From the NCBI GenBank assembly GCA_017439345.1, contig JAFSJJ010000010.1, forward strand, positions 10,442 to 74,441: a stretch of 64,000 nt of DNA, read 5' to 3'. The position numbers and the translations under genes were made by a program. Origin of the DNA: Synergistaceae bacterium (lineage in GTDB: Bacteria; Synergistota; Synergistia; Synergistales; Aminobacteriaceae). Within the stretch, counting starts at the first letter, position 1; each line of letters opens with the position of its first letter. Under the pieces are notes generated by a model. It saw only the letters and a list, made by a program, of their open reading frames with translations. It was not told where the DNA came from and did no database searches. Shown in pieces: positions 23,040 through 40,590 of this stretch.

Positions 23040-23339
23040 TTACTGAACGTTGAGAATTTCATCAAATCCTGTTGTCTCAAAAATCTTCATGACTTCCGGT
23101 ACAGCGTTCTTGATTACCATAGTTCCCTGCTGTGAATTCATGTACTTCTGAGCCTTCAGTAAAACTCTTAGTCCTGCCGATGAGACATAAGCTAGCTTTG
23201 ACATATCAACAACAAAATTCTTTACGCCCTTGAGATTAGTGCTTAAATCCTTTTCGAGCTGGTCTGCCGTTACTGCACTCAGCTTCTTATCGAGCGTCAA
23301 TGTAAGGTCTTGGCCGTTATCTGACTTGTCGAATATCAT
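23040..23339 (-). CDS. STAS-domain protein (SpoIIAA/RsbV-like anti-sigma-factor antagonist fold), 99 aa
   Basis: Contains DMSKLAYVSSAGLRVLLKAQK, with the conserved Ser-containing loop, and a C-terminal FETTGFDEILNV. Confidence 0.85.
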   Translation of the reverse strand: MIFDKSDNGQDLTLTLDKKLSAVTADQLEKDLSTNLKGVKNFVVDMSKLAYVSSAGLRVLLKAQKYMNSQQGTMVIKNAVPEVMKIFETTGFDEILNVQ

Positions 23340-23363
23340 ATTATGCCTCCTGCTTAATCACTC

Positions 23364-23657
23364 TTACTCAATGTTGAGCAGTTCATCGAAGCCCGTAACT
23401 TCGAATATTTCCCGTATCTCCTGACTTATATTCTTGACCGTCATGCTGCCCTGCTTGTTCATGATTTTCTGAGCCTTAAGTAAAACTCTCAATCCTGCTG
23501 ATGAGATATAAACAAGTTTGCTCATGTCCATAACTAGAGCTTTTACGCCCGCAAGTCCGCCGAGTTCAGCCTCAAGTTCAGGAGCTGTCGTGGTGTCAAG
23601 TCTGCCGTCAAGTGAAATTGTTAATTCGTCTCCGTTAGTTGTTTTGTTGATTAACAT
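23364..23657 (-). CDS. STAS-domain protein, 97 aa (tandem paralog)
   Basis: Contains DMSKLVYISSAGLRVLLKAQK and FEVTGFDELLNI. It is a clear paralog of 23040..23339. Confidence 0.85.
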   Translation of the reverse strand: MLINKTTNGDELTISLDGRLDTTTAPELEAELGGLAGVKALVMDMSKLVYISSAGLRVLLKAQKIMNKQGSMTVKNISQEIREIFEVTGFDELLNIE

Positions 23658-23661
23658 GTTT

Positions 23662-25524
23662 TTATTTGCCTCCAGATTTTAATAATTTTATTTTGTTAGC
23701 TGCGTCTGCTTTTAGACCCTTGAGATCTATTTTGCCGCTCCCAAGTACCGGAAGTTTATTATACACAATAAAGTATGAAGGTATCTTAAACTTCGATAAA
23801 TGTTTTGCTAATTCAGAACGTATGAATTTCTCATCGAATTTAGCTCCGTCCTTAAGCGTTATACATGCACAGACCTCTTCACCGAAAAATTCACTGGGAA
23901 CTCCGACAACTTTCACTTCTGAGATAATATCACTAAGTAAAGTTATTGCATTCTCAACTTCAATCGGAGTGATGTTCTCGCCGCCCCTGATGATTAACTC
24001 TTTCAATCTGCCTGATAATCTCAAGTAGCCGTCAGCGTCAATCATGCCTAAGTCTCCTGTGTGAAGCCAGCCTTCTGCGTCAATTGACTGGTCATCAATC
24101 GGAACTTTGTAATAGCCGAGCATTAAATTGCTGCCCTGAACGAGAATTTCTCCCTGCTGATTTATATCACAGTCTTGATTTGTCTCGATATTGCGTATCT
24201 TGATTTCGAGTATCCCGAACGGAAGCCCTACAGTGTGCAGAATATGATCTTGACTGTCATCTGCCTTAGTGAGTGAAACCGGAGCCATCTCGCTTAGTCC
24301 GTATGCTGACATGAAATGATTTGCGGGCATATTCTTCTGGAACATCTCAATCTGAGCCGGTGTTGCTGCTGCTGCTGATATTATCGTTCGTCTTAAGCTG
24401 GCGGCTTTATCAGGAGTGAAATTCTTGTTATTCACAAGAGCTATTAACATCGCCGGAACTGAGTGAAATATCGTGCATTGATGCTTCGAGATAAGCTCTA
24501 ATATCGTATCAGTTCTTATATTCTCAGGGAAATAAACGCTTGAATTCACGATCAAACTTGATAATAAATTCGCTACAAGTCCGAATATGTGAAATAACGG
24601 AGCAATTATGCAGCTTCTATCGCTTTCAGTTATGTTCATGCGCTTTGTGTTCTCAACTGAAGCGTTCATCAAGTTAAAATACGAGAGCAATACACCTTTG
24701 GGACGGCCTGATGAACCTGACGTAAATATTACAACTGCAGGATCGTCAGCTTCAAAGTCGTGCTGGTATTTATCTTTGATTGCGTCATATTCGCCGATAC
24801 GGGACTTGTAATTAATATCTTTCGCAAATGAGTACGTCTTAACGCCTTCAAGAGCAATATTTTTCTCGACTGCCTCGCCTATGCATAGATAATCAGTGTC
24901 AGAGATTTTCATAAACATAGACAATTCGCTTGCATTGAGATTAAAGTTTAACAACACTGCGATTGCCCCTAATTTCTGAAGTGCAAAGAACGTTAATACC
25001 CAGTTTGCAGAGTTTGCCCCGAGTATGCCTACATGAGAGCCTTTGTGAATTCCCAGCTTGCTTAAGTCATCGGCTATAACGTGAGAACATTGTTCTATTT
25101 CCTGCCAAGTATAAGAGTCAATTGCATCAAATAAAATTTTCCTGTATCCTGACTCATAAACGCTCTTAGCAAGAAATTTCTTGAAGTTAAAGTGTATCAG
25201 CTCGTCTAGCTTGCTCTCTGAATCATGCTTGATTAATTCAACGTTCAAAATCTGGTCAAAGCCGGTAGTCTCGAATATATCAAAGACTTCTTGAGTAACG
25301 TTTATAATCTTGAATTTATCCTTGAATCTCTTGGCACAGATTAATAATTCTCTAAGTCCGCTCGATGAGATATAAGGCACGTCCTTTAAGTCAAATATCA
25401 AAGCGTCTGCATCATCAGGGATTTTTGCAGCATTAAGCCTCAATTCAGGAGAACTAGCCGTATCTATTCTGCCGGAAAGTTTGGCCAGAAAGTTTTTGTT
25501 ATCCTGCTGAACCTGAAACTGCAT
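23662..25524 (-). CDS. N-terminal STAS domain fused to an ANL-superfamily acyl-AMP/CoA ligase
   Basis: Residues 1-~100 form a STAS domain (DLKDVPYISSSGLRELL, FETTGFDQILNV). These are followed by the AMP-binding motifs IFTSGSSGRPKGV, YGLSE, HTGDLG, IIRGGENI and GSGKIDLKGLK. Confidence 0.85.
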   Translation of the reverse strand: MQFQVQQDNKNFLAKLSGRIDTASSPELRLNAAKIPDDADALIFDLKDVPYISSSGLRELLICAKRFKDKFKIINVTQEVFDIFETTGFDQILNVELIKHDSESKLDELIHFNFKKFLAKSVYESGYRKILFDAIDSYTWQEIEQCSHVIADDLSKLGIHKGSHVGILGANSANWVLTFFALQKLGAIAVLLNFNLNASELSMFMKISDTDYLCIGEAVEKNIALEGVKTYSFAKDINYKSRIGEYDAIKDKYQHDFEADDPAVVIFTSGSSGRPKGVLLSYFNLMNASVENTKRMNITESDRSCIIAPLFHIFGLVANLLSSLIVNSSVYFPENIRTDTILELISKHQCTIFHSVPAMLIALVNNKNFTPDKAASLRRTIISAAAATPAQIEMFQKNMPANHFMSAYGLSEMAPVSLTKADDSQDHILHTVGLPFGILEIKIRNIETNQDCDINQQGEILVQGSNLMLGYYKVPIDDQSIDAEGWLHTGDLGMIDADGYLRLSGRLKELIIRGGENITPIEVENAITLLSDIISEVKVVGVPSEFFGEEVCACITLKDGAKFDEKFIRSELAKHLSKFKIPSYFIVYNKLPVLGSGKIDLKGLKADAANKIKLLKSGGK

Positions 25525-26396
25525 TATTGATTTAACTCCTTGTTGACGACATCGAGAATAACTGCGCGTAATTCAGGGTCTTCCAGTGCTAACTGGACAT
25601 TTGCCGAGAGCCAGCCTTTTTGAGTTCCGCAGTCAAATCTGCGTCCTTTGAAGACTACTCCCCATACTGGTTCTTGAGAGCATAATGTCTTGAGAGAGTC
25701 TGTGAGCTGAATTTCTCCGCCGGTGCCTGCCTGCTGGTTGTGCAATAACTCAAATATCTTAGGCGATAATACATAGCGTCCCATGATTGCTAAGTTGCTG
25801 GGTGCTTCCTCAAGCAAGGGCTTCTCTACCATGTCAACGATCTTGTGAATTCCTGGTTCAACTTCGAACTGAGATTTCACTATTCCATAGCGCGAGACGT
25901 TCTGAGGCTCGACCTCTTCAAGGGCTATGACACTGCCGCCCATCTTCTCATGAACGCGGATTAACTGGGCAATAACAGGGTCTTCAGGGTTAATAAATAC
26001 GTCATCGGGCAAAGCTACTGCAAAGAACTCATTCTTGCACATAGGCTCGGCACATAATACAGCGTGGCCAAGTCCTAGAGGCTGTCTCTGCCTGACAAAT
26101 AATATCTCGGCCATGTTCGCTATCTTGAGCATCTTCTCATAAAGTGCTACTTTGCCTCGTGATTTCAGCATTTCCTCGAGTTCAAACGACCGGTCAAAAT
26201 AGTCCTCAATTGAACGCTTGGCACGTCCTGTTATCATTATAATCTCGTTACAGCCTGAAGCTACTGCTTCTTCGACACCATACGAAATTATCGGACGATT
26301 GACAAGGGGAAGCATTTCCTTCGCAAGTTCCTTCGTTACAGGCAAAAAACGAGTCCCTAAACCAGCAACAGGAAATACACATTTCGTAATCTTCAT
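25524..26396 (-). CDS. galU: UTP--glucose-1-phosphate uridylyltransferase
   Basis: Has KCVFPVAGLGTRFLPVTKELAKEMLP at the N-terminus and VEKP. The stop overlaps the downstream ATG by 1 nt. Confidence 0.9.
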   Translation of the reverse strand: MKITKCVFPVAGLGTRFLPVTKELAKEMLPLVNRPIISYGVEEAVASGCNEIIMITGRAKRSIEDYFDRSFELEEMLKSRGKVALYEKMLKIANMAEILFVRQRQPLGLGHAVLCAEPMCKNEFFAVALPDDVFINPEDPVIAQLIRVHEKMGGSVIALEEVEPQNVSRYGIVKSQFEVEPGIHKIVDMVEKPLLEEAPSNLAIMGRYVLSPKIFELLHNQQAGTGGEIQLTDSLKTLCSQEPVWGVVFKGRRFDCGTQKGWLSANVQLALEDPELRAVILDVVNKELNQ

Positions 26397-26414
26397 GATA
26401 AATAAATTACCTCC

Positions 26415-28166
26415 TTAAAAATTTTGAGCAAACTGACTGTTATACAAATCCGCATAAAGTCCGTTCTTCGCTAATAATTCATCGTGAGTCCCGGCTTCAC
26501 AGACATCGCCGTTGTTCATGACTAGAATTAAATCAGCGTTCTTTATCGTCGATAACCTGTGAGCTATTACAAATGACGTTCGACCCTTCATTAAGTTATC
26601 AAGGGCTGACTGTATTATTTTCTCTGTCCTAGTATCTACGTTCGATGTAGCTTCGTCAAGTATCAATACAGGCGAGTTCTTTATCATTGCTCGTGCTATA
26701 GTGATTAACTGCTTCTGACCTGATGAAAGACTTGATATGTCATTTATAATCGTGTCTACGCCTTCGGGTAATGCCTTCACCGAGTAATCAAGACCTGATG
26801 CTTTTAATACGTCATTCAAGTTCTGATCTGAAATATTCTTGCTGGAATAAATAATATTATCTTTAACAGAACCTTCAAACGTCCATATATCCTGAGGCAC
26901 TAAGCCTATAAAGTCATGAAGCCTTTCACGCGATATTGTGCTGATGTCTACTCCGTCAAAGTATATTTTGCCGTCATTCAGGTCATAAAAACGCATTAAT
27001 AAATTCATCATCGTTGACTTGCCTGCGCCGGTCGGCCCTACGATTGCTACTTTCTGGCCGGATTTAATATCTGCGCTGAAATCATGAATTATAATCTGTC
27101 CGGGAACATAGCCGAATTTAACATGTGAGAATTTTACGTCTCCCATGATTTTATTATTATTATTCTCTTTCTCTGGTGAAGTTATTTCGCTGATTTCAGG
27201 CTCCTCGAGAAGCTCAAATATTCTCTCTGCTGAGGCCATCGCAGGCTGCAAGAACGATATGAACTGCGAGATATTTATCAACATCTGAGAAAATATATTC
27301 GAGTACGTCATAAATGCTACCATGACACCTAGTGTTACGCCTTCGGATTTCGAGAGAATTAAATTAGACGTTACAAATACTATCAAGAACTGCGCTATTA
27401 ACCCTCCTGCTGTCATTATGGGCTGCATTATTCCTGATACGAACTGCGATAACCTGGAGCTTTCATATAATTCATCATTGCCGGCTTCGAATAAGGCTTT
27501 AATTCTGTCCTCGTTGTTAAATGCCTTTATTACTGAATGACCGTTGAAGGCTTCTTCTGCAAGAGAATTCACTTTGCCTAACAACATCTGCTGCTTGATA
27601 AAATACGGCTGGGATCTGCCCATCAGGAATTTATTTATATTCAGGAATATAATACTCGTAATCACAGTAACAAGAGCTAATATCACATTCATATAGAGCA
27701 TTATGCACGATGCGCAGATTAATACTACTATTGACGTAACTATTGCGCTTAAATTATTCGTCAAGGCATTAACCATTATGTCTATATCAGTAGTTATCCG
27801 GCTCATAATATCTCCGGTCTGGCGGGTATCAAAATATGACAGGGGTATTCTATCAAGTTTGGCATTTATCTCAGTTCGTAAATCACGGCCCATTAACTGT
27901 GAGACATGAACAAGCATTATATTCTGAATGAACGTTAATAAACTTCCTCCGGCAAGAAATATCACAGCAAGTCCGGAATAATATAACACTTGATTAATAT
28001 TCATAGGCTTAGAAATTCCTGACGCTATCTCATCAGTGATTAGCTTGACTAACTGTGGCAGTACTATCGAAGCTATCGTCCCGATTAATGCAAGTATTAA
28101 CGAGATAAAAATTTTTGCGCTGTATATCTTGAGACGTGAATATATTTTTGCAATTAGTCTTAGCAT
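26415..28166 (-). CDS. ABC exporter subunit (TMD-NBD), consensus ATPase site
   Basis: Six-helix TMD. Walker A is GPTGAGKST, the signature is LSSGQKQL, Walker B is LILDEATSNVD and the H-loop is IAHRLST. Confidence 0.9.
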   Translation of the reverse strand: MLRLIAKIYSRLKIYSAKIFISLILALIGTIASIVLPQLVKLITDEIASGISKPMNINQVLYYSGLAVIFLAGGSLLTFIQNIMLVHVSQLMGRDLRTEINAKLDRIPLSYFDTRQTGDIMSRITTDIDIMVNALTNNLSAIVTSIVVLICASCIMLYMNVILALVTVITSIIFLNINKFLMGRSQPYFIKQQMLLGKVNSLAEEAFNGHSVIKAFNNEDRIKALFEAGNDELYESSRLSQFVSGIMQPIMTAGGLIAQFLIVFVTSNLILSKSEGVTLGVMVAFMTYSNIFSQMLINISQFISFLQPAMASAERIFELLEEPEISEITSPEKENNNNKIMGDVKFSHVKFGYVPGQIIIHDFSADIKSGQKVAIVGPTGAGKSTMMNLLMRFYDLNDGKIYFDGVDISTISRERLHDFIGLVPQDIWTFEGSVKDNIIYSSKNISDQNLNDVLKASGLDYSVKALPEGVDTIINDISSLSSGQKQLITIARAMIKNSPVLILDEATSNVDTRTEKIIQSALDNLMKGRTSFVIAHRLSTIKNADLILVMNNGDVCEAGTHDELLAKNGLYADLYNSQFAQNF

Positions 28167-28168
28167 GA

Positions 28169-29899
28169 TTAATCCTGTCCTGTCTGCGATTTCGCTATTT
28201 CCTGATAGAGTGGGCAGCTTTGCATTAACTCCGAATGAGTACCTTCACCGACTATGCGCCCTTTGTCTATCACTATGATTTTATCAGCGTTAATTATAGT
28301 GCTGATTCTCTGGGCTGCTATCAAGATCGTTGCGTCCTGAAATTCTTCTCGTAAGGCTTGGCGTAACTTCTTGTCAGTAACTAAATCAAGTGCCGAAAAC
28401 GAGTCATCGAATAAATATATCTCAGCAGATTTACTTACTGCGCGCGCGATTGTCAATCTCTGCCTCTGGCCTCCTGAAAAATTACCGCCCCCGTGTTCGA
28501 CTTGAGAATTATAGCTGTCAGGTCTGGCCTCGATAAAGTCTTTAGCCTGTGCAATTTCCGAAGCTCTCTCAAGATTATTATTATTCCCTGAGAAATTTAT
28601 ATTATCTGCTATAGTACCTGTGAACAAAATATTTTTCTGGGGGACATAGCCTATTCTTGAGCGTAAATCAGCAAGATTGAAGTCTTTAACGTCAACGCCG
28701 TCTACTAGAATTCTGCCCTCTGAAGCGTCATATAATCTGGGAATTAAATTCAAGAGCGAACTCTTTCCGCACCCTGTAGGCCCGATAAATGCTACTGTCT
28801 GACCTCGTGAAACACTAAATGATATATCATCAAGAGAATTTGCTCCTGCTCCGGGATACTTGAAGCTGACGTGATTGAATTCTATAGTTCCGGACTTCGC
28901 AATTTCGCCTGAATAATTACCGTCCTGAATGCTCACGGGAGAATTAATTACTTCATTCACGCGGCCTGAACATACTAATAATCTTGGGAGCTGAATAAGC
29001 ATTAACGTTATAATCATGAAAGCATTGATGACTATTCCGCTGTAGAAAAATGCTACCAGCATATCAGAAAACAGAGCAAGTTTCGCTGATGAGTCAGCAA
29101 GAGACATTATCATATATGCTCCGGTTACATAAATAATTATTCCCGGTATGCTCTGAAAGAACGTTAAAACAGGATACATCGCTGACATTCGGGAATTGAC
29201 ATATATATTAGTGTCAGTCAACGGCGCGTTTACGTCATTAAATCTCTTGGCCTGATAATCATAAGCGTTGTAGGCGTGAATTACTCTTATACCTGATATA
29301 TGCTCGAACGAAACTTGATTTAGCTTGTCAGTTAATTTATTTACTATTTTCATTCGGGGCGTTAATGACGTTATCAAGAATATCACGAATATTATTATAA
29401 TCAGGACTATCGAAGCTATTACACCAGTCCAGATATAATTTTGCTTTGATAAATTTATCACGGCTAGAATTCCGGTCAACGGAGCACGAATTATGATCAT
29501 AGGCAGCATTGATATAAACATTTGAATTTGCGTTATATCAAGTGTACAGCGCGTTAATAAGCTCGGCACTGTGAACTCGTTGACTTCCTTCAATGAGAAA
29601 TCTATAACTTTGTCAAATGTCCGTGTCCGTAATCTTTTAGCTATGATGCTTGCTAGTTTTGCCGTGAAATATACGCTTCCTACACCGCATAACAAATTAG
29701 CCCCCGCACAGGCTAACATCGCTAAACATAAAGGCACTATTGCACTGAACGGGGTATTATTATTCTGTAATAAAAGCGTTATATTCTTGATATATTCCGG
29801 GAATAACAAATCAAGTCTGGCCTGACATGCTATTAATACAAGAGCAATAACAAGCCAGATATATTCACGGGCTTTGATTTGACGAAATATATTTTTCAC
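28169..29899 (-). CDS. ABC exporter subunit (TMD-NBD), degenerate ATPase site
   Basis: Walker A is GPTGCGKSS and the signature is FSGGQRQR. Walker B is YLFDDSFSALD (catalytic Glu replaced by Asp) and the H-loop is IAAQRIST (His replaced by Gln). Confidence 0.9.
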   Translation of the reverse strand: MKNIFRQIKAREYIWLVIALVLIACQARLDLLFPEYIKNITLLLQNNNTPFSAIVPLCLAMLACAGANLLCGVGSVYFTAKLASIIAKRLRTRTFDKVIDFSLKEVNEFTVPSLLTRCTLDITQIQMFISMLPMIIIRAPLTGILAVINLSKQNYIWTGVIASIVLIIIIFVIFLITSLTPRMKIVNKLTDKLNQVSFEHISGIRVIHAYNAYDYQAKRFNDVNAPLTDTNIYVNSRMSAMYPVLTFFQSIPGIIIYVTGAYMIMSLADSSAKLALFSDMLVAFFYSGIVINAFMIITLMLIQLPRLLVCSGRVNEVINSPVSIQDGNYSGEIAKSGTIEFNHVSFKYPGAGANSLDDISFSVSRGQTVAFIGPTGCGKSSLLNLIPRLYDASEGRILVDGVDVKDFNLADLRSRIGYVPQKNILFTGTIADNINFSGNNNNLERASEIAQAKDFIEARPDSYNSQVEHGGGNFSGGQRQRLTIARAVSKSAEIYLFDDSFSALDLVTDKKLRQALREEFQDATILIAAQRISTIINADKIIVIDKGRIVGEGTHSELMQSCPLYQEIAKSQTGQD

Positions 29900-29905
29900 G
29901 TTATA

Positions 29906-31045: not shown

Positions 31046-31076
31046 GTAAATCATCTCCTGGATTAAATCGATTAAA

Positions 31077-31901
31077 TCAAATCAAATCAAAATTTTTCAG
31101 GGCGTTATATATTCCATCGTGATCTATGTCATCTGTTATATAATCCCCGTATTCTTTGGCTGCGTTTGAACCGTTGCCCATAACTATGCCGGTTCCTGAA
31201 GAGTTCAGCATTTCCAAATCATTAACGCTGTCTCCGAATGCATAAGTATCGCTCACTGACAAGCCGAGTTTCTCACAAAGCCTGCGAATTCCTGAACCCT
31301 TGCTCATGCCCTCAGGGACTATTTCGAAGACATCAAGGCGTTCACGATTTATAAATATGGGCTGCTGAATCAGGACATCATAATATTCTGACATGAGATT
31401 TAGAAATTTCACCCTGTCCCACTTGTCAGCTTCACTGCCTGCTACACATGTTGCCTTGCTGATTATTAATTCGCTGTCAACGTCAATATCGTTAATTGAA
31501 AGCAGATTATCGCCTACAGATTTTCTCAACGTGTCAACTTGTCCTGGAGGGTTAAAGCCTTCGGGGTCGAAATAAAGATTATAACGACCCTCGTAGACTG
31601 CACCGAACTTGTATTTACGAATGGCATTCAGTGTCTGAACAGCAAGCTCATGGGAAAGCTCATAATAAAATAACGTATTATTATCGTGTTCTATCAAAGT
31701 TCCGCAGCCGGATATTATTCCGCTGAAGCCTAGATTTATAACTTGAGACGGGATATTAACTTTCGTTCGTCCTGTGCAGATAAATGCAAGATTGCCTTTT
31801 TCCTGAAGCATTTTGATTGAATCACGTGTACTTTCAGGGATAAAGCCTTTGCTGGTCATTAAAGTCCCGTCTATATCAAAGAAAGCCGCTTTCCTGTTCA
31901 T
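31077..31901 (-). CDS. HAD-IIB (Cof-type) sugar-phosphate phosphatase
   Basis: Contains AAFFDIDGTLM, CTGR and the C-terminal GDSVNDLEM. Confidence 0.85.
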   Translation of the reverse strand: MNRKAAFFDIDGTLMTSKGFIPESTRDSIKMLQEKGNLAFICTGRTKVNIPSQVINLGFSGIISGCGTLIEHDNNTLFYYELSHELAVQTLNAIRKYKFGAVYEGRYNLYFDPEGFNPPGQVDTLRKSVGDNLLSINDIDVDSELIISKATCVAGSEADKWDRVKFLNLMSEYYDVLIQQPIFINRERLDVFEIVPEGMSKGSGIRRLCEKLGLSVSDTYAFGDSVNDLEMLNSSGTGIVMGNGSNAAKEYGDYITDDIDHDGIYNALKNFDLI

Positions 31902-31904
31902 GAT

Positions 31905-33221: not shown

Positions 33222-33262
33222 GATAAATAAAATCACTCCTTAATAAATTTAAGAAAAAATAC

Positions 33263-35827
33263 TTATCTAGCGCACACACTCTGAATTATACGCGACTTGA
33301 AAAATTTTATTGCTTTTGGACTGTCCGTAACGTGAACGGGGTCTATTGCATCAGGTAAAACATTACGCTTATACTGGAGAATATCACGATATAATATATG
33401 CGTCTTTGGCTCGTTGAACATGATTTTGACTTCACGGGACAGCATTCTTGATACAAGATTTTCTGCACGTGAAATTTTTTCCTTATCGAGTTTTACGCCT
33501 TCATAATACGGAAGCTCCAGAATTAGGCAGTAAGTCTCATCGTCCTTGAAAAATACGAAATCACGGACTTCAATATTTATCTCGCGCTCGCACAATATTG
33601 CAGATTCGTACATATCATCTTCGCTTATTCCCCCGTAAATAGCATAACGCCTTCCTGGAGCTGAGAATATTAAATTCTTATCCGTGAGTTCTTCTGCCTT
33701 GATTATAAGTTCTGTCCTGTATCTATAAAGCCCTGCCAATGTCGATACTATCAGCCTGTAAGACCTGCCCGGTTCTAACTGGTGAGCGTAATACATTCTG
33801 CCGTCATCAAGAGCTTCGAATTCATAAAATGCTGATGTCAAACACAACTTGAACATGTCATGAGAATACACGCTGCCTGCAAAGACTTCTTCTGAGGCAA
33901 TTCCGGCATTCTCTACTGGAATATTCTTTACATATAATTTCAGGTGATGAGCATGTATCTTGAACGCTCCTGAAGTGTTGCATATGAATTTCTCAAGCTC
34001 TGGCCATATCTGACTTATTGCATCGTCTGCATAGAAATCTACTGTCCTGAGTTCTTCGGCCCGTGCCTTATCCGGTGAAATTCTCTTGTTCAGAGCTTCC
34101 CTTAAGCTGTCGGGGAGACCTTCTCTATCACTGATACAGCCTGCTTCTATGTCATTGCAAAGTTCCTGCCAGTGTTCGAACATAAACTCAAGATTATCAA
34201 TCAGTATCCATGCATTAGGCGCGAAAATAACGTCAAGGCCTCGTTCCTTGAGTGCAAAGAATAACCGTGCGTAATCGGCATTCAATATCTCATTCGGGAA
34301 CATCAGCTCAACAGGATTTATCAAATTCAGCCTGTTATTCAGTTCAGTCAAATTGTTCGAGTATAATTCTGACAATATCAAGCCCAGCAAAGTATTTGTA
34401 TACGTGTTGTCCAAGTCAAGACCGGATGAGTGATACGGCAGACTTTCAAGCATCAGGAAAATTTTACGCCCTGCAATCAGCTTCCGAAACTCATCAACGT
34501 AATATTTCAAGTGCCTCTGTGTAAACGGAAGCCTTCTCGCTTTACCCATTATGCCGTGAGTCAGGGCATACGATGTTATGTCGCTGTCTGTGAATATTCC
34601 TGTCTCTGCTATTCTTGCTGTAAGTCTTATCATAGGCTCGTAAGTGTCATAATCAGTCAAGGGCAGCCGCGAAGAATAACCTTCCATTGTCATTATATTC
34701 TCGAACTGATAGCGTTTTCCGTAATCAGAGTGTTCACCGTTCTCAAGAATATTCTTCAATATTTGAGCCTGACAATCTTTCACAGTTATGGGCATTGGCT
34801 GTCTTCGATACGAGATAAAGCTCCGGCTTGAGTCTAATTCTCCCTCATTGATTATAACCTGAGGAAGTGTCAAAAGCTCTTTGCGCCTCTGGTCAGAATA
34901 TAATTTTGTCGCAGGCAGAGGAGTCAGCATTCTCACATATGGTTCAAGAATTTCACGTATTTCATTGCGCGTCTCTTTAGTAATAACAGTGCTTGAGAGT
35001 ATCAGCATTGCCTCATGGGTCAACAAATTATGCATGACATCATTCATATTGAACCCGAAACTCAGACCGGTATCAAATATTTTCTTGAAGCCTAGTGCAT
35101 ACGATATTAACTTCTCATTCGAAAGATCCGTTGCCTGTACAAGCGAGGCACTGTTCACAAAATACACATAGCCAATTAACTGAGGCAGCAAACATACATT
35201 ATCAGCATAACCATACGCCTTGACGTTGAAAGCAAAATCCTCTGCAAAGAATATATCTTCGTCAAAACGCAGATTATGTTCATCGAGAAATTTACGCCTG
35301 TACAGCTTTGAAGTTACCATGCCCCATATTACGTTAAAAATTTTCTTGTCGTCCCAGTTATGCCTGTTCACTACAATGCGTTCTTGAGTCTGATCCCACA
35401 AAACTTTTTCGTTCAAGATTAAGTGCGACTCAGCCTCTAACTCAATCTCACGCCGGAACGCGCATATATCAGAGTTCGTGTTGATTATATTATTCAACGC
35501 AGATTTTATACACTCAGGGGTATATTTATCATCGCCGTCAAGAAATCCTACATAATCGCCCGATGCATGTTCAAGCGCGTAATTTCTGGGACTTGAAGGG
35601 GTGTGATAATCATTATCAAGAATGCATATTTTCACGTTGTCATAACCTGCAAGCATTGTCCGTATACTGTCTTGATAGTCTTTAGGCGAATTGTGAACCG
35701 CCACTACCCACTCAATATCAGCAAAGCCGAACGTCTGAGCCTTCATTGACTCAAACGCCCGTGCGAAGATATTTAAATCTACGTTGTGAAGAGGTGTTAT
35801 TACAGAAATTTTATAATAATCTCTCAT
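33263..35827 (-). CDS. Fusion protein: N-terminal GT2 glycosyltransferase plus C-terminal GH3-like (acyl-acid amido synthetase type) adenylating domain
   Basis: GT2 part: ISVITPLHNV...FLDGDD. From about residue 345 it shows the GH3 pattern AQILKNILENGEHSDYGKRYQFENI...RLPLTDYDTYEPMIRL...SYALTHGIMGKARRLPFT. Confidence 0.7.
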   Translation of the reverse strand: MRDYYKISVITPLHNVDLNIFARAFESMKAQTFGFADIEWVVAVHNSPKDYQDSIRTMLAGYDNVKICILDNDYHTPSSPRNYALEHASGDYVGFLDGDDKYTPECIKSALNNIINTNSDICAFRREIELEAESHLILNEKVLWDQTQERIVVNRHNWDDKKIFNVIWGMVTSKLYRRKFLDEHNLRFDEDIFFAEDFAFNVKAYGYADNVCLLPQLIGYVYFVNSASLVQATDLSNEKLISYALGFKKIFDTGLSFGFNMNDVMHNLLTHEAMLILSSTVITKETRNEIREILEPYVRMLTPLPATKLYSDQRRKELLTLPQVIINEGELDSSRSFISYRRQPMPITVKDCQAQILKNILENGEHSDYGKRYQFENIMTMEGYSSRLPLTDYDTYEPMIRLTARIAETGIFTDSDITSYALTHGIMGKARRLPFTQRHLKYYVDEFRKLIAGRKIFLMLESLPYHSSGLDLDNTYTNTLLGLILSELYSNNLTELNNRLNLINPVELMFPNEILNADYARLFFALKERGLDVIFAPNAWILIDNLEFMFEHWQELCNDIEAGCISDREGLPDSLREALNKRISPDKARAEELRTVDFYADDAISQIWPELEKFICNTSGAFKIHAHHLKLYVKNIPVENAGIASEEVFAGSVYSHDMFKLCLTSAFYEFEALDDGRMYYAHQLEPGRSYRLIVSTLAGLYRYRTELIIKAEELTDKNLIFSAPGRRYAIYGGISEDDMYESAILCEREINIEVRDFVFFKDDETYCLILELPYYEGVKLDKEKISRAENLVSRMLSREVKIMFNEPKTHILYRDILQYKRNVLPDAIDPVHVTDSPKAIKFFKSRIIQSVCAR

Positions 35828-37796
35828 GAGTTGCTAAGAAATTCTTTATATCAAAATCCGTGCTGAACAGGAAATCAAGGTTGTAATTATTATGCCCGTC
35901 CTTGTCTTTGGTTATTGACATGTCATCTGATGCAAACGCAATAATCTTTGCGCTCTCAGAAGTCTTGCGCTGTTTCTCGAAATCATAAGGCTGGCCGGAA
36001 TCTTTGAACGTAAGCCTGAGGTAATCACTAAAGCATACTAGATCTAAGTGAATATCGCCTACGTCATCAAATGCGTTCATAATGCGCTCGATAAGCATTT
36101 CTTCTGAAGCAAGACGGATTCTGCGCGCCTTTCTGACATCAAAGCCGAACTGCATTGCATAGCCTTCTATCATCGAAATTAACGGGTCTATAGCATATGA
36201 AGTGTTCTTGACTACAACACTGCTGACTTCAACGCCCTTCTTGAGTTCGCCTTCAAGTTCAAGGGTTCTCAGCTTCATTAACATATCGACATGCAGTTTT
36301 CTCTGGTCAATTTTGCCTGTAGCATTCAGCGGGAACTTGTCATATATAAAGAAATACGCAGGGACTTTGAACGAGCCTACAGTTTCCTTAAGATGCTTGC
36401 GTAATGCGTCCTCATCAAATTTTGCGCCTTCCTTGAGAGTTATGCACGCACCCAAGTTCTCACCGTAAAGCCTGTCTTTGAAGCCGAATATACGACATTC
36501 CTTAATGCCTTCTAAGCTGATTGCCTGAGCCTCGATTTCGCCGGGGGTGATATTCTCTCCGCCCTTGATAATAATATCTTTAATGCGTCCTGCGATTCTT
36601 ACGTTGCCGTCTTCGTCCATAACGCCTAAATCTCCGGTATGGAACCAGCCGTTTTCGTCAATAGCCTGTTTCTCCGGAGGCAGCTTGTAATATCCGTTCT
36701 TAACATGGAAGCCTCGAGTTACAAGTTCGCCGACTTCTCCAGCAGGAAGCAGCTGATTATTTTCACCGCAAATGCCTATCTCGACTTCAGGTATTCTGCG
36801 TCCTATTGTGTTATGCCTCACTGAAATATTATCTTCAGGCCGTGCCATAATGAAAACTGTAGCTGTCTCAGTCATTCCGAACATATTCAAGAACGTTGCG
36901 TTATTCAATGCCGTCTCAAACCTCACGAACTGAACAGGTGACGTATAACTTCCTGCTATTCCGCACATCCTGACATACGGCGCGCATTTGGCTGTAGCGT
37001 CTTTGCTGTCTATTATAGACTGATATACTGCTGCTACTGACCATAAGTCGCTTACATGCTCTCTATTTACTATATCGGCTATAGCGTCAGCTTTCACTTT
37101 CTCAGGAATATATACAGTTCCGCCAAGACATAAATATATGCACGGGATACTCAATCCAAACGCATGGAACAGGGGAAGTGCTACACATGCCTTAGTGCCT
37201 CGAATTGACTTGAACTCATCGGCAAATATCAGCGAACAGTTAATCATCGAGTACTGTGAAGTCAATACAGCCTTAGGAAATGAAGTAGTCCCTGAAGTGT
37301 AAATAATATATGCATCGTCCTTAATGTCCCATTTTGAGTCATCAACAGCAATTTTCTCACATGAAGCAAAATCCGTCTCAAGATACGAGAACACTTTATC
37401 TTGAGGAAGCTCAAAGGATTTAGCTAGCATTTCAGCCTCTGAAGCAACACCTTTAGTATCATGAGTAGCTCCGTAAAGGACATATTTAGAATCTGCAAAT
37501 GTTACTAACGGGGTTACATCATTGATAGAATAATTCGAGTTAAGGCACACTGCAACACCGCCGGCGTGAACAATGCCGTAATAAGTGCAGAGCCATTCAG
37601 GTGAAGGACTTCCCCATATTACAACATGGTCATTTTTCTTGACACCGTGCTTGACTAGATACGATGATACAGCGTCAATATTCTCAATCAGCTGCTTGTA
37701 AGTAACCCGCTTATCTCCCATTACAACAGCGTCTTTGTCAGGGTGCAGGGCTGCCTGCTCGGTGAATATCTGATAATACGTCTTGTTTGTGAACAT
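35811..37796 (-). CDS. ANL-superfamily acyl-AMP/CoA ligase with a C-terminal RsbW/SpoIIAB-like domain
   Basis: AMP-binding motifs are IIYTSGTTSFPKAV, FGMTET, HTGDLG, IIKGGENI and ATGKIDQRKL. An extra ~140 aa follows (residues ~520-661), containing RRIRLASEEMLIERIMNAF...GDIHLDLVCFSDYLRLTFKDSGQPYDF. Confidence 0.8.
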   Translation of the reverse strand: MFTNKTYYQIFTEQAALHPDKDAVVMGDKRVTYKQLIENIDAVSSYLVKHGVKKNDHVVIWGSPSPEWLCTYYGIVHAGGVAVCLNSNYSINDVTPLVTFADSKYVLYGATHDTKGVASEAEMLAKSFELPQDKVFSYLETDFASCEKIAVDDSKWDIKDDAYIIYTSGTTSFPKAVLTSQYSMINCSLIFADEFKSIRGTKACVALPLFHAFGLSIPCIYLCLGGTVYIPEKVKADAIADIVNREHVSDLWSVAAVYQSIIDSKDATAKCAPYVRMCGIAGSYTSPVQFVRFETALNNATFLNMFGMTETATVFIMARPEDNISVRHNTIGRRIPEVEIGICGENNQLLPAGEVGELVTRGFHVKNGYYKLPPEKQAIDENGWFHTGDLGVMDEDGNVRIAGRIKDIIIKGGENITPGEIEAQAISLEGIKECRIFGFKDRLYGENLGACITLKEGAKFDEDALRKHLKETVGSFKVPAYFFIYDKFPLNATGKIDQRKLHVDMLMKLRTLELEGELKKGVEVSSVVVKNTSYAIDPLISMIEGYAMQFGFDVRKARRIRLASEEMLIERIMNAFDDVGDIHLDLVCFSDYLRLTFKDSGQPYDFEKQRKTSESAKIIAFASDDMSITKDKDGHNNYNLDFLFSTDFDIKNFLATHERLL

Positions 37797-37799
37797 GTT

Positions 37800-39095
37800 T
37801 TATTCAACCTTTCTTAATTTTTCTAAGTCTACTATATTATGACTTATACGGCCTCTATCCGTGAATTCAGTCTTGAAGCCTGCTTTGATCAGCTCAGAGT
37901 TCATCGCACGCGCTAATTTATCATCATCAAATCTCTGAATTGACGTAACGTTCAGAATATCTCTAAACGTAGTTATAATGAAATACGACAAAGCAAACGG
38001 AGCATCAACGAAAATATTCTCGAACAGGTCATTAACTGCGCCGGGCATATCCATAATGCCAAGATAACTTGTACCGTAAGTTACTCCGCCGGGAACTGAT
38101 GACGTAAGCTCTTTACTCTTTGATATAATATCCTCTTTCTCGAACTCCCGAACCGCACAAGCCTTGTTGTATAACGATTTAGCGTAATTCTCAGGCTTCC
38201 TTTGAAGATTAATGACGTTCTTAATATAAGCGCAGAAATCTTCATCATTCATTGCAAGCTCTTGACTTGACACAGGGATAAACACAGCGTCTGAGAAATT
38301 CACTATGCTTGAACACTTGAACACAGCACGAAGATCAACGGGCAGGGCAGTTAATATATTCCGTGAGCCGATATCATAATTATTATTTACAGCTTTTACC
38401 ATAAGACTTATCATCAACGGCATAAAACTTGTATGCATTGACTTTGAAGCCTTCAGAAATTCACTCAGGCTCAGGGTAATTCTATAGTGATGAGAGTACG
38501 TTTCAGCAGGATTATAGAACTCAACTGGAAGCGGGTAATAATTCGCGAAGTCCGGCACAAACGACGGCTCTATGTCCTTATCAGCAAAAGTATTATACGG
38601 GTCAAGATTTTCAGGAGTATCCCAGTTTTCAGGCTCTTTAGTCCTTATTTCGGCCTTAGCAAGTTCTTCAGGTGAGAGTTCAATCTTTGCGTAATAATAC
38701 AATGCTGTCTTGAGAAAACTGCTCAGACCCCGCCAGTCAGATATTCCGTGATACATCGAGATAATAACATGCTTATCATCTTCAGAGTCCTGAATAATTG
38801 CCATCAAGTACCCGTTAGTCTCATCTGAACCGAGATTAATTATACGGTCATGTCTGATTACTTTCACAGGTGCATTATTGCTCTCAAAGAAAATTTTGCC
38901 TTCTTTAATTACAGGTCTGTAAGCGAACTCCGGGAAAAGCGATAAAGCCTTCTCGAGACCTGCTCTCAGCGCGTCAACATCAACTTTGGACTTGAAATAA
39001 AGATTAACTCGAACGTCCATAGTTGCACCACTACCCGAAGCTGTATAGTAAAAATATTTGTCAGAAGCTCCGGGAACACGTAAATTACTATTCAT
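37800..39095 (-). CDS. Condensation/CAT-superfamily-like acyltransferase (HxxxD = HGISD)
   Basis: Contains SMYHGISDWRGLSSF. It is a paralog of 31905..33221 (shared ETNGYL, YYYAK and LPVDLR blocks). Confidence 0.65.
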   Translation of the reverse strand: MNSNLRVPGASDKYFYYTASGSGATMDVRVNLYFKSKVDVDALRAGLEKALSLFPEFAYRPVIKEGKIFFESNNAPVKVIRHDRIINLGSDETNGYLMAIIQDSEDDKHVIISMYHGISDWRGLSSFLKTALYYYAKIELSPEELAKAEIRTKEPENWDTPENLDPYNTFADKDIEPSFVPDFANYYPLPVEFYNPAETYSHHYRITLSLSEFLKASKSMHTSFMPLMISLMVKAVNNNYDIGSRNILTALPVDLRAVFKCSSIVNFSDAVFIPVSSQELAMNDEDFCAYIKNVINLQRKPENYAKSLYNKACAVREFEKEDIISKSKELTSSVPGGVTYGTSYLGIMDMPGAVNDLFENIFVDAPFALSYFIITTFRDILNVTSIQRFDDDKLARAMNSELIKAGFKTEFTDRGRISHNIVDLEKLRKVE

Positions 39096-40590
39096 GATAT
39101 TTTCTGCTCCATAAAGTTAATTTTTCGGGTGTGAAATCTTTATACGGCTCGAATATATCTGCATCGAACCTGTACATTTTATTCCTTTCCCAGTCTGAAC
39201 CGGGGTTGCCTGTCTTGGCGAAATTTACTGCACGTTCAAAGAATTTATCACCGGTTACGAAATCTGCTTCAGTCCAGTAATCTTTTCTCAAGTCCGAATA
39301 GTGCTTGAATAAATACGCCAGCTCCGAAGAGTGGAAAGAACCCCATATATTTGACTCAGGTCCCGGCATAACGTGTTCAAAGCGCAGCAGCCATGTATTA
39401 TTATTTCCTGTCTTAGAGCGTGCATTAGCGAATAAAACATTTTCTGCTGATAAGAAATCCTGCTGCATAACAGCCAGCGAACCGGGAAATTTATCAGGCG
39501 GGTAAATCGCCATAGCTTGAGAGAATAACTCATCACCGAAGAATTTTCTTGCTGAATTTATATAATCCTGCTCGTTCTCGGCTTCAATGAACGGGAAAAG
39601 TAAATAATCATTGGCAACAAAACTTGCTATATAGTCATAATCATTAGTCAAGCCCTGAATTACTCCGTCATGAAAAGTTTTGTCAAGCACGTAACTATCA
39701 AGACAATACGGCAGATACTGTTTAGGCAGCTTTAATAAATCATCAGCCGGAATACTGCGCATTTGTTCTGCATCGAGCGAACCTAATAATTCATCACCAA
39801 GTGCTTCACAGTGCTTCAAAGGCTCATAAATAAAAACTTTGTCGAAACCTTTACCAGTCTTACTCGGAACGTTTGAAGCAGGCAGATGAAACGTTGTATG
39901 ACTCATTGCGAAAACACGCTTGAACAGTCCCTTAGCCAGCGGTGAGACAGCAAGAGTATTGACCGCAGCAGCCCCCGAAGATTGTCCTGCAATAGTGATA
40001 TTGTCAGGATTCCCTCCGAAAGCCTTTATGTTGGCTCGAACCCATTTTAACGCCTTAATCTGGTCTAACAGCTGATAATTTCCTGAAACGTGTTTATCAT
40101 TTTCAGAGCTTAAAGCAGAACTTGCCAGCAGTCCGAGAATTCCTTCTCTGAAATTAACGCTGACGAATATAACTCCTGAGCGTGCAAGATTTTCACCGTC
40201 ATAGACTTCACACGATGAGCCTCCTGAAATGAAGTTGCCTCCGTGAAAGTAGACGATAACAGGTTTATTATCTGCATTATCGTTAGGAGACCATATATTG
40301 AGATACAAGCAGTCTTCTGAATAGCCTTTAGTAGTGTCGATAATGAACTCGCTACTCCACATCAAGAATGCTTCCTGCTTAGCCTGAATTGCACTCTTTG
40401 CCCATGAAGTACAGTCTCTAACGCCGTCCCATTGAATTACGTCCTGAGGGGCTTTCCATCTCAAATTTCCAACAGGAGGGGCAGCATATGGAATTCCCTT
40501 GAAGATATTAACGGCTTTGTCGCTGGTCATACAGCCCGAGATATTTCCGCCTTCAACGCTGAATACGCCAGTGCTCAATAAATTTTGCAT
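39088..40590 (-). CDS. Type-B carboxylesterase (para-nitrobenzyl-esterase-like), no signal peptide
   Basis: Contains FKGIPYAAPPVGNLRWKAP, EDCLYLNIWSP, VYFHGGNF and the nucleophile GQSSGA. AAGGGAG lies 12 nt upstream of the ATG. Confidence 0.88.
   Translation of the reverse strand: MQNLLSTGVFSVEGGNISGCMTSDKAVNIFKGIPYAAPPVGNLRWKAPQDVIQWDGVRDCTSWAKSAIQAKQEAFLMWSSEFIIDTTKGYSEDCLYLNIWSPNDNADNKPVIVYFHGGNFISGGSSCEVYDGENLARSGVIFVSVNFREGILGLLASSALSSENDKHVSGNYQLLDQIKALKWVRANIKAFGGNPDNITIAGQSSGAAAVNTLAVSPLAKGLFKRVFAMSHTTFHLPASNVPSKTGKGFDKVFIYEPLKHCEALGDELLGSLDAEQMRSIPADDLLKLPKQYLPYCLDSYVLDKTFHDGVIQGLTNDYDYIASFVANDYLLFPFIEAENEQDYINSARKFFGDELFSQAMAIYPPDKFPGSLAVMQQDFLSAENVLFANARSKTGNNNTWLLRFEHVMPGPESNIWGSFHSSELAYLFKHYSDLRKDYWTEADFVTGDKFFERAVNFAKTGNPGSDWERNKMYRFDADIFEPYKDFTPEKLTLWSRKYHE

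Follow-up and report, generated by a model that had tools for sequence, protein, structure and literature searches.

A gene cluster at positions 23040-40590 of a 64-kb stretch of Synergistaceae DNA (the whole of which is called the window below) combines two acid-activating ANL ligases and two HxxxD acyltransferases with glycosyltransferases, exporters, STAS domains and an RsbW-like pseudokinase. As read from its gene junctions and a terminal hairpin, it is most likely a single 13-gene operon of a rumen Synergistaceae bacterium. We give about an even chance to the reading that this operon encodes a carrier-protein-independent pathway for the assembly and export of an acylated glycoside or glycolipid, possibly with an amino-acid or second acid moiety, in which a switch made of STAS and pseudokinase domains acts on the enzymes themselves. 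Every domain in the operon belongs to a known superfamily, and both carrier-free acyl-glycoside assembly and the control of enzymes by STAS domains have precedents. Five things are undescribed in the literature that we searched: the combination of genes, a Pfam-less branch of HxxxD enzymes, a GT2-GH3 fusion whose ATP motifs have decayed, an abundant STAS-ANL family and a rare ANL-pseudokinase family.

The 13 open reading frames (ORFs), g01 to g13 in transcription order, all lie on the minus strand and fill the interval co-directionally. The junctions between them measure, in the same order, -8, 3, -17, 26, 3, 22, 6, 2, 18, -1, 4 and 24 nucleotides (nt), in agreement with an earlier sequence-only reading of this DNA, which had reported a 13-gene minus-strand layout with these coordinates and with gaps of no more than 26 nt. 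Homologues of g05 begin with MRELG, matching an ATG at Met8 of g05, and this is probably its true start; the gap before it would then be about 47 nt. Upstream of g01 lies an AT-rich region of 147 nt (40591-40737, minus strand), with a GGGAG ribosome-binding site ahead of g01 and a promoter-like site whose hexamers, at 40731-40703, are predicted from a consensus match only. At the other end, directly after g13, an intrinsic-terminator-like hairpin of 14 pairs, 8 of them G-C, is followed by a T-run (22986-23021, minus strand), and this is the sole strong terminator-like site within 22500-41600. Profile searches recovered the families that the sequence-only reading had named (esterase, two ANL ligases, GT2-GH3 fusion, HAD phosphatase, GT2, two ATP-binding cassette (ABC) proteins, GalU and three STAS domains). 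The logic it had proposed, of acid activation, acyl transfer, glycosylation from UDP-glucose, dephosphorylation and export, is consistent with all of our results.

Acid-activating and acyl-transferring enzymes

The two ANL ligase domains are found in the N-terminal part of g03 (residues 1-505; 36282-37796, minus strand as for every operon gene; AMP-binding E 2.4e-66, AMP-binding_C E 8e-12) and the C-terminal part of g11 (residues 101-620; 23662-25224; AMP-binding E 4.9e-68). In both, motifs A3, A5, A7, A8 and A10, the last with the catalytic lysine, are intact, the A7 motif of g11 being HTGD as read from the sequence. Their best NCBIfam matches are acyl-coenzyme A (CoA) ligase models, none of which reaches its equivalog cut-off; for g03 the best is a long-chain-fatty-acid-CoA ligase, again below its cut-off. 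From these motifs and matches both look like ordinary, competent acyl-CoA/AMP ligases.

The two acyltransferases, g02 (X1, 431 residues; 37800-39095) and g05 (X2, 443 residues; 31905-33236), belong to one family, called X here, and have no Pfam or NCBIfam match. Relaxing Pfam to E<=10 gave one chance match only, and the Pfam Condensation model was silent for both proteins even at that level. Relatives of X1 are few: a word-indexed search of 5.8e9 clusters returned only 23, from metagenome-assembled genomes (MAGs) of Synergistaceae and Lachnospiraceae. X1 itself is 100% identical to a protein in the NCBI records of a Synergistaceae MAG. In the family alignment H116 and D120 of the HxxxD motif are invariant, and PxDxR and NxS motifs are also conserved. 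X2, in which the motif reads HGMTD, is 26% identical to X1 over a full-length alignment and 40% identical to an X-like protein that adjoins a STAS-ANL gene in a Lachnospiraceae locus (L010; such numbers denote the loci fetched for comparison). An AlphaFold2 model of X1, with a mean predicted local distance difference test (pLDDT) of 93.2 and a predicted template-modelling (pTM) score of 0.91, has the two-lobed fold of chloramphenicol acetyltransferase (CAT), with the HxxxD motif at the lobe interface. Among its fold matches are TRI101 (2zba, CoA-bound), PapA5 (1q9j), the TomBC C domain, a mannosylerythritol lipid (MEL) acyltransferase (8jos) and the BAHD enzyme HCT (6dd2), at E-values of about 1e-14 to 1e-12 and identities of 10-14%, with TM-scores of 0.55-0.63 for 2zba, 8jos and 6dd2. 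Since the model matches condensation/BAHD/CAT enzymes and H116 and D120 are invariant, the name HxxxD acyltransferase, given to both proteins in the sequence-only reading, is correct. The DFGWG motif of BAHD enzymes has no equivalent, as neither X1 nor X2 contains DFGxG. Judged from the model, X1 and X2 are structurally as near to CoA-dependent acyltransferases as to the C domains of nonribosomal peptide synthetases (NRPS), and the X family adds a branch to the condensation/BAHD superfamily that Pfam does not cover. Locus L010 also contains a 730-residue ORF (2788-4980) in which an APH kinase domain, detected by Pfam, precedes a C-terminal half homologous to X, making it a kinase-acyltransferase fusion.

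The sequence-only reading had noted that no acyl or peptidyl carrier protein (ACP, PCP), ketosynthase or phosphopantetheinyl transferase (PPTase) accompanies these enzymes, and within the 64 kb this holds. The PP-binding model had no match in g02, g04 or g05 at E<=10 and none in the other operon proteins at E<=0.01. In phmmer searches of all stop-to-stop frames of the six-frame translated window, four carrier queries (AcpP, DltC, PCP and an aryl carrier protein, ArCP) found nothing below E 1.7, and AcpS and Sfp gave a best E of 0.85 at 4 bits, which is noise; the six query sequences were entered by hand. No operon protein contains the carrier motif [GA]xDS[LIVMFA], and assigned domains cover all residues of the large operon proteins. 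With lenient Pfam scans of the large and unassigned proteins, the phmmer searches with these hand-entered queries and the GxDS scan all empty, a cryptic carrier domain was rejected. The operon resembles NRPS and other thiotemplate systems in its adenylate-forming and condensation-fold enzymes, but it differs from them in having no carrier domain, PPTase or thioesterase, and in the silence of the Condensation model.

Why, then, should the absence of a carrier be thought anomalous, as it had been in the sequence-only reading? A carrier-free precedent exists in the ornithine lipids of Singulisphaera acidiphila, made by the alpha/beta-hydrolase OlsI and OlsH, the one characterised bacterial GH3 enzyme; OlsH uses free fatty acid and ATP, with no CoA or ACP in the activating step (PMC12493201). 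Because OlsH needs neither, and because CoA-using relatives of the HxxxD fold exist, the absence is explainable rather than paradoxical; with two ANL ligases that look competent, the puzzle is mostly resolved. The operon shares with OlsH and OlsI the pairing of a GH3-family enzyme with an alpha/beta-hydrolase in one operon and would share carrier-free acid activation; the OlsH pathway shows that GH3 proteins of bacteria can take part in lipid-type biosynthesis. The operon differs in having ANL ligases and HxxxD enzymes as well as a sugar supply and exporters, and its hydrolase is a type-B carboxylesterase. Its GH3 domain, moreover, is fused to a GT2 domain and has degenerate motifs, in contrast to OlsH, where TSGTT and a terminal GD are retained.

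This GH3-family domain forms the C-terminal part of g04 (residues 321-854; 33263-34867) and matches PF03321 at E 8.9e-41, GH3_M at E 2.9e-9 and plant GH3 structures at E 2.5e-13 (4b2g) to 1e-9. The GT2 domain that precedes it (residues 1-~320; 34868-35827; PF00535 E 3.2e-16) has a DGDD (DxD) motif that is conserved in all GT2-GH3 homologues. In the GH3 domain, motif 1 reads LTHGIMGKARR, compared with SSGTS..K, and is degenerate; motif 2, IASEE compared with YxSSE, is partly kept; and motif 3, YRYRTEL compared with YRxGD, has lost its Gly-Asp. The corresponding motifs of the reference AtGH3.11 are SSGTSQGRPK, YGSSE and GLYRYRLGD, of which OlsH keeps recognisable versions; the OlsH model NF052613 scores g04 at 21 bits, far from its cut-off of 620. 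GT2-GH3 orthologues from Synergistaceae are degenerate in the same way as g04. Of the three adenylating enzymes in the sequence-only reading, the two ANL ligases stand, with their motifs intact; g04, because its nucleotide-binding motifs are degenerate, is a doubtful third and is not counted here as a proven one. From its sequence the GH3 half appears to lack canonical ATP binding; it may bind an acyl-adenylate or acid made by a neighbouring enzyme, or may scaffold its GT2 half. We found no description of a GT2-GH3 fusion with decayed ATP motifs in the literature searched.

In locus L008 two GT2-GH3 genes stand in tandem, one (13336-15957) with degenerate motifs like those of g04 and the other (15969-18563) with near-canonical ones (TSGSMGQTK, YRYRLGD), which suggests a pair of one active and one inactive enzyme. 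TSGS/SGGG and the terminal GD persist in this second L008 paralogue and in a protein of L020.

STAS domains and the RsbW-like pseudokinase

The C-terminal part of g03 (residues 506-661; 35811-36281, including the stop codon) resembles the anti-sigma kinases RsbW and SpoIIAB. Over its ~155 residues the best PDB sequence match is RsbW (6m36, E 0.053). HATPase_c_2 is sub-threshold both here and in three relatives 24-36% identical to it (E 7e-4 to 8e-3), scoring 19.4 bits compared with 27.4 and covering profile positions ~8-90 of 127. The AlphaFold2 model of the domain is of moderate confidence (pLDDT 68.5, pTM 0.70), and its top 21 structural matches are all RsbW, SpoIIAB or UsfX, with target-normalised TM-scores of up to 0.86; these are anti-sigma kinases that were solved with STAS partners. 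Compared with RsbW and with an intact stand-alone homologue, the Mg-ATP-binding asparagine of the N-box is replaced by glutamate, and a deletion of 16-18 residues has removed the ATP lid and the G2 box. Loss of the asparagine and deletion of the lid recur in all 23 of the full-length family members (23/23). Because of these changes no kinase activity is expected of the domain, an active kinase in g03 being rejected on the family-wide loss of motifs, and by its sequence we class it as a pseudokinase. Presumably it can only bind a STAS protein, thereby gating g03 or tethering g03 to g11.

The ANL-pseudokinase family is small. An exhaustive search of 1.84e9 representatives found the g03 C-terminal domain in only 58 proteins, and nearly all of the full-length ones are ANL fusions of 650-683 residues with this domain as their C-terminal part; a word-indexed search with the same domain gave only 4 short fragments, and the census is that of the exhaustive search.

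The STAS domains are three in number, one forming the N-terminus of g11 (residues 1-100; 25225-25524; PF01740 E 3.3e-10), the others being the free proteins g12 (97 residues; 23364-23657; PF01740 E 2.6e-15; motif YISSAGLR) and g13 (99 residues; 23040-23339; PF01740 E 7.7e-17; motif YVSSAGLR). Of these, g12 passes TIGR00377, the curated model for anti-sigma-factor antagonists, at 64.1 bits compared with a cut-off of 53.45. In all three the phospho-acceptor position, at the start of helix 3 in SpoIIAA, is occupied by a serine that aligns with SpoIIAA Ser58; in g11 this is Ser54, which, like G56, R58 and E59, does not vary among 24 STAS-ANL proteins. The same serine is present in 78 of the 85 STAS domains of the fetched loci, including every free one (12/12) and every APH-fused one (12/12), and the motif that they share is Y-[IV]-S-S-A-G-L-R.

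Proteins with the STAS-ANL architecture of g11 are abundant: more than 120 clusters, mainly from Lachnospiraceae, are 50-57% identical to g11, and 596 relatives were confirmed in species-representative genomes, almost all of them rumen or gut MAGs. Their hosts are Lachnospiraceae, Ruminococcaceae, Oscillospiraceae, Christensenellales, Coriobacteriaceae, Selenomonadaceae and Synergistales. The relatives at L013-L091 come almost exclusively from rumen and herbivore-gut MAGs of at least five phyla, a distribution that suggests habitat-specific horizontal spread. Literature searches found no paper on clusters with STAS-ANL, ANL-RsbW-like or GT2-GH3 proteins.

To judge from motifs and models, the three STAS domains and the pseudokinase look like a partner-switching-like module tied to two ligases. 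The sequence-only reading had listed these domains correctly and assigned them no role, yet they are the most unusual feature of the operon. The likeness to RsbV-RsbW and SpoIIAA-SpoIIAB lies in the fold of the g03 C-terminus, in the STAS proteins (TIGR00377) and in the expected contact between a STAS protein and a kinase-like domain. The differences are that there is no sigma factor, that the kinase motifs are lost and that the domain is tethered to an enzyme. Other parallels are provided by the Anabaena switch described below and by SypA/SypE of Vibrio fischeri, in which, as in the operon, STAS is either the N-terminal domain of a biosynthetic enzyme or a separate protein encoded in a glycan locus. 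Control would in each case act on a pathway rather than on a sigma factor, the phospho-acceptor serine is retained, and the sister loci of the operon have partners of the PP2C and RsbW types.

In the Anabaena system (All4160/HenR/Alr3423) a STAS domain fused to a glycosyltransferase acts as a phospho-switch on the enzyme; it is phosphorylated in vitro by RsbW-type kinases, and HenR, the PP2C phosphatase, is bypassed by a variant that cannot be phosphorylated (PMC13555669). Such STAS-sugar-transferase fusions are described there as largely confined to cyanobacteria (PMC13555669). Compared with that switch, the enzyme fused here is an ANL ligase and the RsbW-like partner is a pseudokinase fused to a second ligase. 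The new elements, relative to known switches, would therefore be acid-activating ligases as the fused enzymes, with APH-type kinases taking that place in sister clusters, and a catalytically dead anti-sigma-like domain on a ligase.

Kinases of the active RsbW type and PP2C phosphatases are encoded in sister loci. Proteins with a HAMP-SpoIIE-HATPase_c_2 architecture occur in 7 of the 57 STAS-ANL loci and stand-alone HATPase_c_2 proteins in 4/57, and ANL-pseudokinase genes adjoin STAS or STAS-ANL genes in L032, L036, L072 and L092. The former combine a PP2C-type phosphatase (SpoIIE) with a kinase in one chain, as at L064 (19295-20869), next to STAS-ANL or STAS genes, and are candidate sensors that could drive the switch. 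A 584-residue SpoIIE protein at L092 (19378-21132) is a further candidate. The fusions of STAS to APH, an aminoglycoside/choline-kinase-like domain, share the motif YISSAGLR with STAS-ANL proteins and are found at L010 (121-1356), L027 (5491-6663) and, in three copies, L104 (6476-7735, 11270-12538 and 12562-13842).

Sugar supply, cluster family, proposed pathway and alternatives

The remaining operon genes supply a sugar donor, a phosphatase, an esterase and an exporter. GalU, the UTP-glucose-1-phosphate uridylyltransferase, is encoded by g10 (25524-26396), which passes the TIGR01099 equivalog at 352.1 bits compared with a cut-off of 326.8. The second GT2 glycosyltransferase, g07 (29906-31054; PF00535 E 4.3e-35), is soluble, having no transmembrane segment, and has homologues in L001, L020, L027, L092, L103, L104 and L106; in NCBIfam the GT2 domains of the operon resemble WcaA-, TuaG-, PglI- and YibD-type enzymes. 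The Cof-type HAD-IIB phosphatase g06 (31077-31901; TIGR00099, 145.3 bits compared with 137) has its DxDxT motif at residues 9-13, counts the sugar-phosphate phosphatase BT4131 among its solved relatives and is 39% identical to the HAD protein that adjoins the STAS-ANL gene of L010. The type-B carboxylesterase g01 (500 residues; 39088-40590; PF00135 E 2.8e-82) carries its nucleophile elbow, GQSSG, at residues 202-206, and its N-terminus is not hydrophobic, as expected of a cytoplasmic protein. Its closest solved relatives are a fumonisin B1 esterase (8s6d) and PnbA (1qe3), and its orthologues adjoin X genes in L001-L008, L092 and L101.

Two ABC half-transporters, g08 (28169-29899; ABC_membrane and ABC_tran) and g09 (26415-28166; ABC_membrane E 2.2e-47, with ABC_tran), would form the exporter. 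The ATP-site motifs of g08 are degenerate (Walker B IYLFDD, ending in DD, and an AAQR H-loop with Gln), and g09 has a canonical catalytic Glu (LILDE), a His in its H-loop (IAHR) and a deviant LSSGQ signature. Sequence motifs thus give the pair one degenerate and one consensus ATP site, the pattern of a heterodimeric exporter. This asymmetry marks heterodimeric multidrug-type ABC exporters of the TM287/288 and BmrCD type. The ABC gene beside the core genes in L002-L008 is 53-58% identical to g08 and its partner 56-57% identical to g09, for which the Firmicutes loci give 41-47%. Next to the operon, at 41456-47123 on the minus strand, Pfam identifies a resistance-nodulation-division (RND) efflux pump, with an outer-membrane efflux protein (OEP), an AcrB-like protein and a membrane-fusion protein (MFP), which is a possible route across the outer membrane. 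Its orthologues stand beside the core in L002-L008 (identities of 66-69% for AcrB, 57-60% for OEP and 50-53% for MFP).

Comparison of gene neighbourhoods suggests a composite origin. In Synergistaceae-type contigs (L002-L008) a core of four genes, for esterase, X, ANL-pseudokinase and GT2-GH3, is found with the orthologous ABC pair and RND pump alongside. A different set, of X2-like, STAS-ANL, HAD, UDP-sugar pyrophosphorylase and ABC genes, is found without the core in L010, L011 and L014; L010 and L011 have the content APH, STAS-APH, X-like, APH-X, ABC, ABC, X2-like (40%), STAS-ANL (55%), Cof-type HAD (39%) and UDP-sugar pyrophosphorylase. Because the two sets also occur separately, we read the operon, from its sequence relationships, as a composite of a Synergistaceae core (genes 1-4) and a module like that of Lachnospiraceae (genes 5-13), inside which the ABC pair of Synergistaceae type now lies. 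Locus L092, which is metagenomic, has the parts in another order, as X, STAS, STAS, GT2-GH3, ANL-pseudokinase (53%), esterase, GT2, X, ABC and ABC; after these come genes for an APH kinase, an acyltransferase of the AT3 type, an amylase-family enzyme and a SpoIIE phosphatase. L001, from Lachnospiraceae, has GT2, GT2-GH3, GT2, GT2, GT2-GH3, X, esterase, ABC and ABC, and no ANL gene. The same parts are mixed in other combinations in L020/L102, L027, L103, L104 and L106, and L104 has four X genes and four STAS fusions.

By ORF clustering, the 57 STAS-ANL loci contain X-like genes in 14 cases and the ABC pair in 12, in addition to AT3 acyltransferases (7/57), STAS-APH (6/57), HGSNAT-like acyltransferases (6/57) and GT2-GtrA (5/57). 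Distinct loci of 12 kb or more that contain X number 26; X is accompanied by the ABC pair in 15 of them, by a STAS domain in 13, by GT2-GH3 in 11, by the esterase in 7 and by ANL-pseudokinase in 6. Gene order varies and content recurs across phyla, and the loci therefore represent a functional cluster family, whose members come almost exclusively from rumen and gut metagenomes. A STAS domain as an obligatory partner of X was rejected: X clusters without any STAS domain are found at L001-L009 and L103, and 43 of the 57 STAS-ANL loci have no X.

From the domain identities, folds, motif states and co-occurrence described above we infer the substrates, CoA use, binding and phosphorylation in the following scheme. 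GalU would provide UDP-glucose, from which g07 and the GT2 domain of g04 would glycosylate a small, possibly phosphorylated acceptor. Removal of the phosphate by g06, as in other two-step glycoside syntheses, would make the glycosylation step irreversible. The g03 and g11 ligases would convert two carboxylic acids to acyl-AMP and then to acyl-CoA, and g02 and g05 would shift the acyl groups on to the glycoside, at hydroxyl or amino positions, in the manner of TRI101, BAHD and MEL-type enzymes, whose donors are CoA thioesters. The GH3 domain of g04, with its decayed ATP motifs, could bind or couple an acid or merely act as a scaffold, and the g01 esterase could trim or trans-acylate an ester. 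The g08/g09 exporter would carry the product over the inner membrane, from where the RND pump may take it further. As for control, an unphosphorylated STAS domain (g12, g13 or the N-terminus of g11) would bind the g03 pseudokinase, gating or tethering both ligases; phosphorylation of its serine by a kinase encoded elsewhere would release it, and a PP2C phosphatase would reverse this.

Comparable chemistry is found in the fungal mannosylerythritol lipids, made with Emt1, Mac1/Mac2 and Mmf1, and in the mycobacterial acyl-trehaloses, made with PapA, FadD, Chp and MmpL proteins. The likeness is in a glycosyltransferase, two HxxxD acyl transfers and a dedicated exporter, to which mycobacteria add an ANL-family FadD and an alpha/beta-hydrolase transacylase. 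The differences are that HxxxD identity is only 10-14%, that the glycosyltransferase and exporter families are not the same, that there is no polyketide synthase (PKS), and that GH3, HAD, STAS and the pseudokinase have no counterpart. The hyellamide cluster, for a glycosylated N-acyl tyrosine, was considered as a chemical analogue and set aside as a loose parallel only, with different enzymes.

Several observations weigh against the acyl-glycoside pathway with its STAS switch. The proposed use of acyl-CoA by the ligases and by X1 and X2 is drawn from family and fold only; NRPS C domains and PapA5 score about as well in the fold search as CoA-dependent enzymes do, and the fold itself does not discriminate between a CoA and a carrier thioester as donor. 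For GT2 enzymes of this kind the acceptor is usually a lipid-linked molecule or a polymer rather than a small molecule. The window contains no STAS kinase and no PP2C (SpoIIE-type) phosphatase, its flanks being housekeeping genes, and in the core loci of Synergistaceae the pseudokinase domain is retained with no STAS gene in the 8-10 kb around it. STAS-ANL served as bait in the retrieval of many loci, which biases the co-occurrence counts for STAS upward. The RND pump may adjoin the operon by simple synteny, and since the loci concerned are all related contigs, with similar divergence in every gene, we have downgraded its adjacency as independent functional evidence. Finally, no characterised cluster of this layout, or member of this family, was found in the literature searched.

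Could the operon instead neutralise and expel rumen toxins, namely carboxylic acids and esters from feed or plants, free fatty acids and phenolic acids among them? The esterase would free an acid, the ANL and GH3 domains would activate it, the HxxxD and GT2 enzymes would join it to an amino compound or a sugar, and the conjugate would leave through the ABC and RND systems, roughly as in phases I-III of xenobiotic metabolism. The near-restriction of relatives to rumen and gut MAGs fits such a role, as do the similarity of g01 to xenobiotic-type esterases (the fumonisin B1 esterase and PnbA), the degenerate-site asymmetry of the ABC pair, a mark of heterodimeric multidrug-type exporters, and the adjacent RND pump of multidrug type. 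A 4CL-like ANL, BAHD-like HxxxD enzymes, GH3 and a glycosyltransferase also mirror the conjugation enzymes of plants, HCT/BAHD being among the fold matches. The usual small-molecule detoxifying glycosyltransferases are, however, GT1 and not GT2 enzymes. That the operon has its own GalU and a phosphatase for sugar phosphates suggests instead that a defined glycoside core is built, and two to four paralogous HxxxD enzymes per cluster suggest ordered multi-acylation. We consider this conjugative detoxification unlikely.

An envelope function is a little harder to credit, and we think it decidedly unlikely, although it overlaps with the acyl-glycoside pathway if the product of the latter is an envelope glycolipid. 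Here the enzymes would add acyl or aminoacyl groups to a lipid-linked or membrane-anchored glycan, with the ABC pair as a flippase like PglK or MsbA. The WcaA-, TuaG-, PglI- and YibD-type enzymes that the GT2 domains resemble have lipid-linked acceptors, sister loci add AT3 (Acyl_transf_3) and HGSNAT-like membrane acyltransferases, GT2-GtrA and sugar epimerases of the kind that typically modifies surface glycans, and STAS control of polysaccharide enzymes has a precedent. Against this, all of the biosynthetic enzymes of the operon are soluble, and Pfam scans of the operon found no priming phosphoglycosyltransferase, Wzx/Wzy, ABC-2 transporter or ligase.

The composite structure raises a further question, namely whether genes 1-4 and genes 5-13 are two unrelated, abutting units that serve different pathways. 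The four-gene core does stand alone in L002-L008, the second set lacks the core in L010, L011 and L014, and g11 is nearest to Lachnospiraceae proteins. Yet both modules are interleaved in the independent clusters L092, L027, L020/L102, L104 and L106, and the ABC pair that lies near the core in core-only loci is inside the second module here. That second module also contains the STAS domains, which are the sole candidate partners of the g03 pseudokinase, and the junctions are tight throughout. The proposal is thus very improbable.

The slimmest chance of all is given to STAS as a phosphopantetheine-free carrier or adaptor, its serine being loaded by the fused ANL (with acyl) or APH (with phosphoryl) and presented to the HxxxD enzymes, with the pseudokinase as a dock for free STAS proteins. 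Its attractions are the lack of any ACP, PCP or PPTase beside condensation-fold acyltransferases, a nearly invariant serine, an N-terminal STAS on two unrelated classes of ATP-using enzyme (ANL and APH) in X-rich clusters such as L104, and a pseudokinase that presumably binds STAS and cannot phosphorylate it. It is countered by the X clusters that lack STAS, by the 43 STAS-ANL loci that lack X, and by the co-occurrence of genuine PP2C phosphatases and intact RsbW-type kinases, as a phospho-switch predicts. We know of no precedent for an acyl-O-Ser STAS domain. Genetic work on a STAS-glycosyltransferase fusion has established phospho-regulation of that enzyme (PMC13555669). If true, the STAS carrier would amount to a thiotemplate-like assembly logic without phosphopantetheine.

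If the acyl-glycoside pathway with its enzyme-level switch is correct, a family of gene clusters that make or conjugate an exported acyl-glycoside has been shuffled and transferred among rumen and gut Firmicutes, Synergistaceae and others. Partner switching at the level of enzymes, so far shown genetically for one cyanobacterial STAS-glycosyltransferase, would then extend to acyl-activating enzymes, and the X branch and the GT2-GH3 fusion would be useful targets for enzyme discovery. Hundreds of public STAS-ANL proteins are without a described function, and the wiring of regulation and assembly, like the rumen metabolite itself, is worth following up.

The surrounding window

Outside the operon and the RND pump the window is ordinary chromosome, with guaA, metF, gyrA, psd, pssA, purA, ftsEX and others, and Rfam at gathering thresholds matched no RNA element in the 64 kb. 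Between the pump and the operon, on the opposite strand, an ORF of 222 residues (40738-41406, plus strand) has a lipoprotein-like N-terminus with a signal-like stretch ending in FASGGCGG; it has no Pfam match, and no homologue of it was found in the related Synergistaceae loci L002-L008. The gyrA (18957-21578) and psd (21469-22185) ORFs overlap by 110 nt on the same strand (21469-21578), and the start of psd is probably over-called.

Further away, within 12225-16933 on the minus strand, a Double-GTPase-2 (DO-GTPase2) gene at 13454-14437 is flanked by three ORFs without a Pfam family, one of them of 757 residues. A defence-system reading of the Pfam-less ORFs at 12-17 kb was dropped, no PADLOC model being matched. 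A GT8 glycosyltransferase ORF of 240 residues (10953-11675, minus strand), in which the match begins only at profile position 91 of 253, could be a gene truncated at its N-terminal end or one with a mis-called start.

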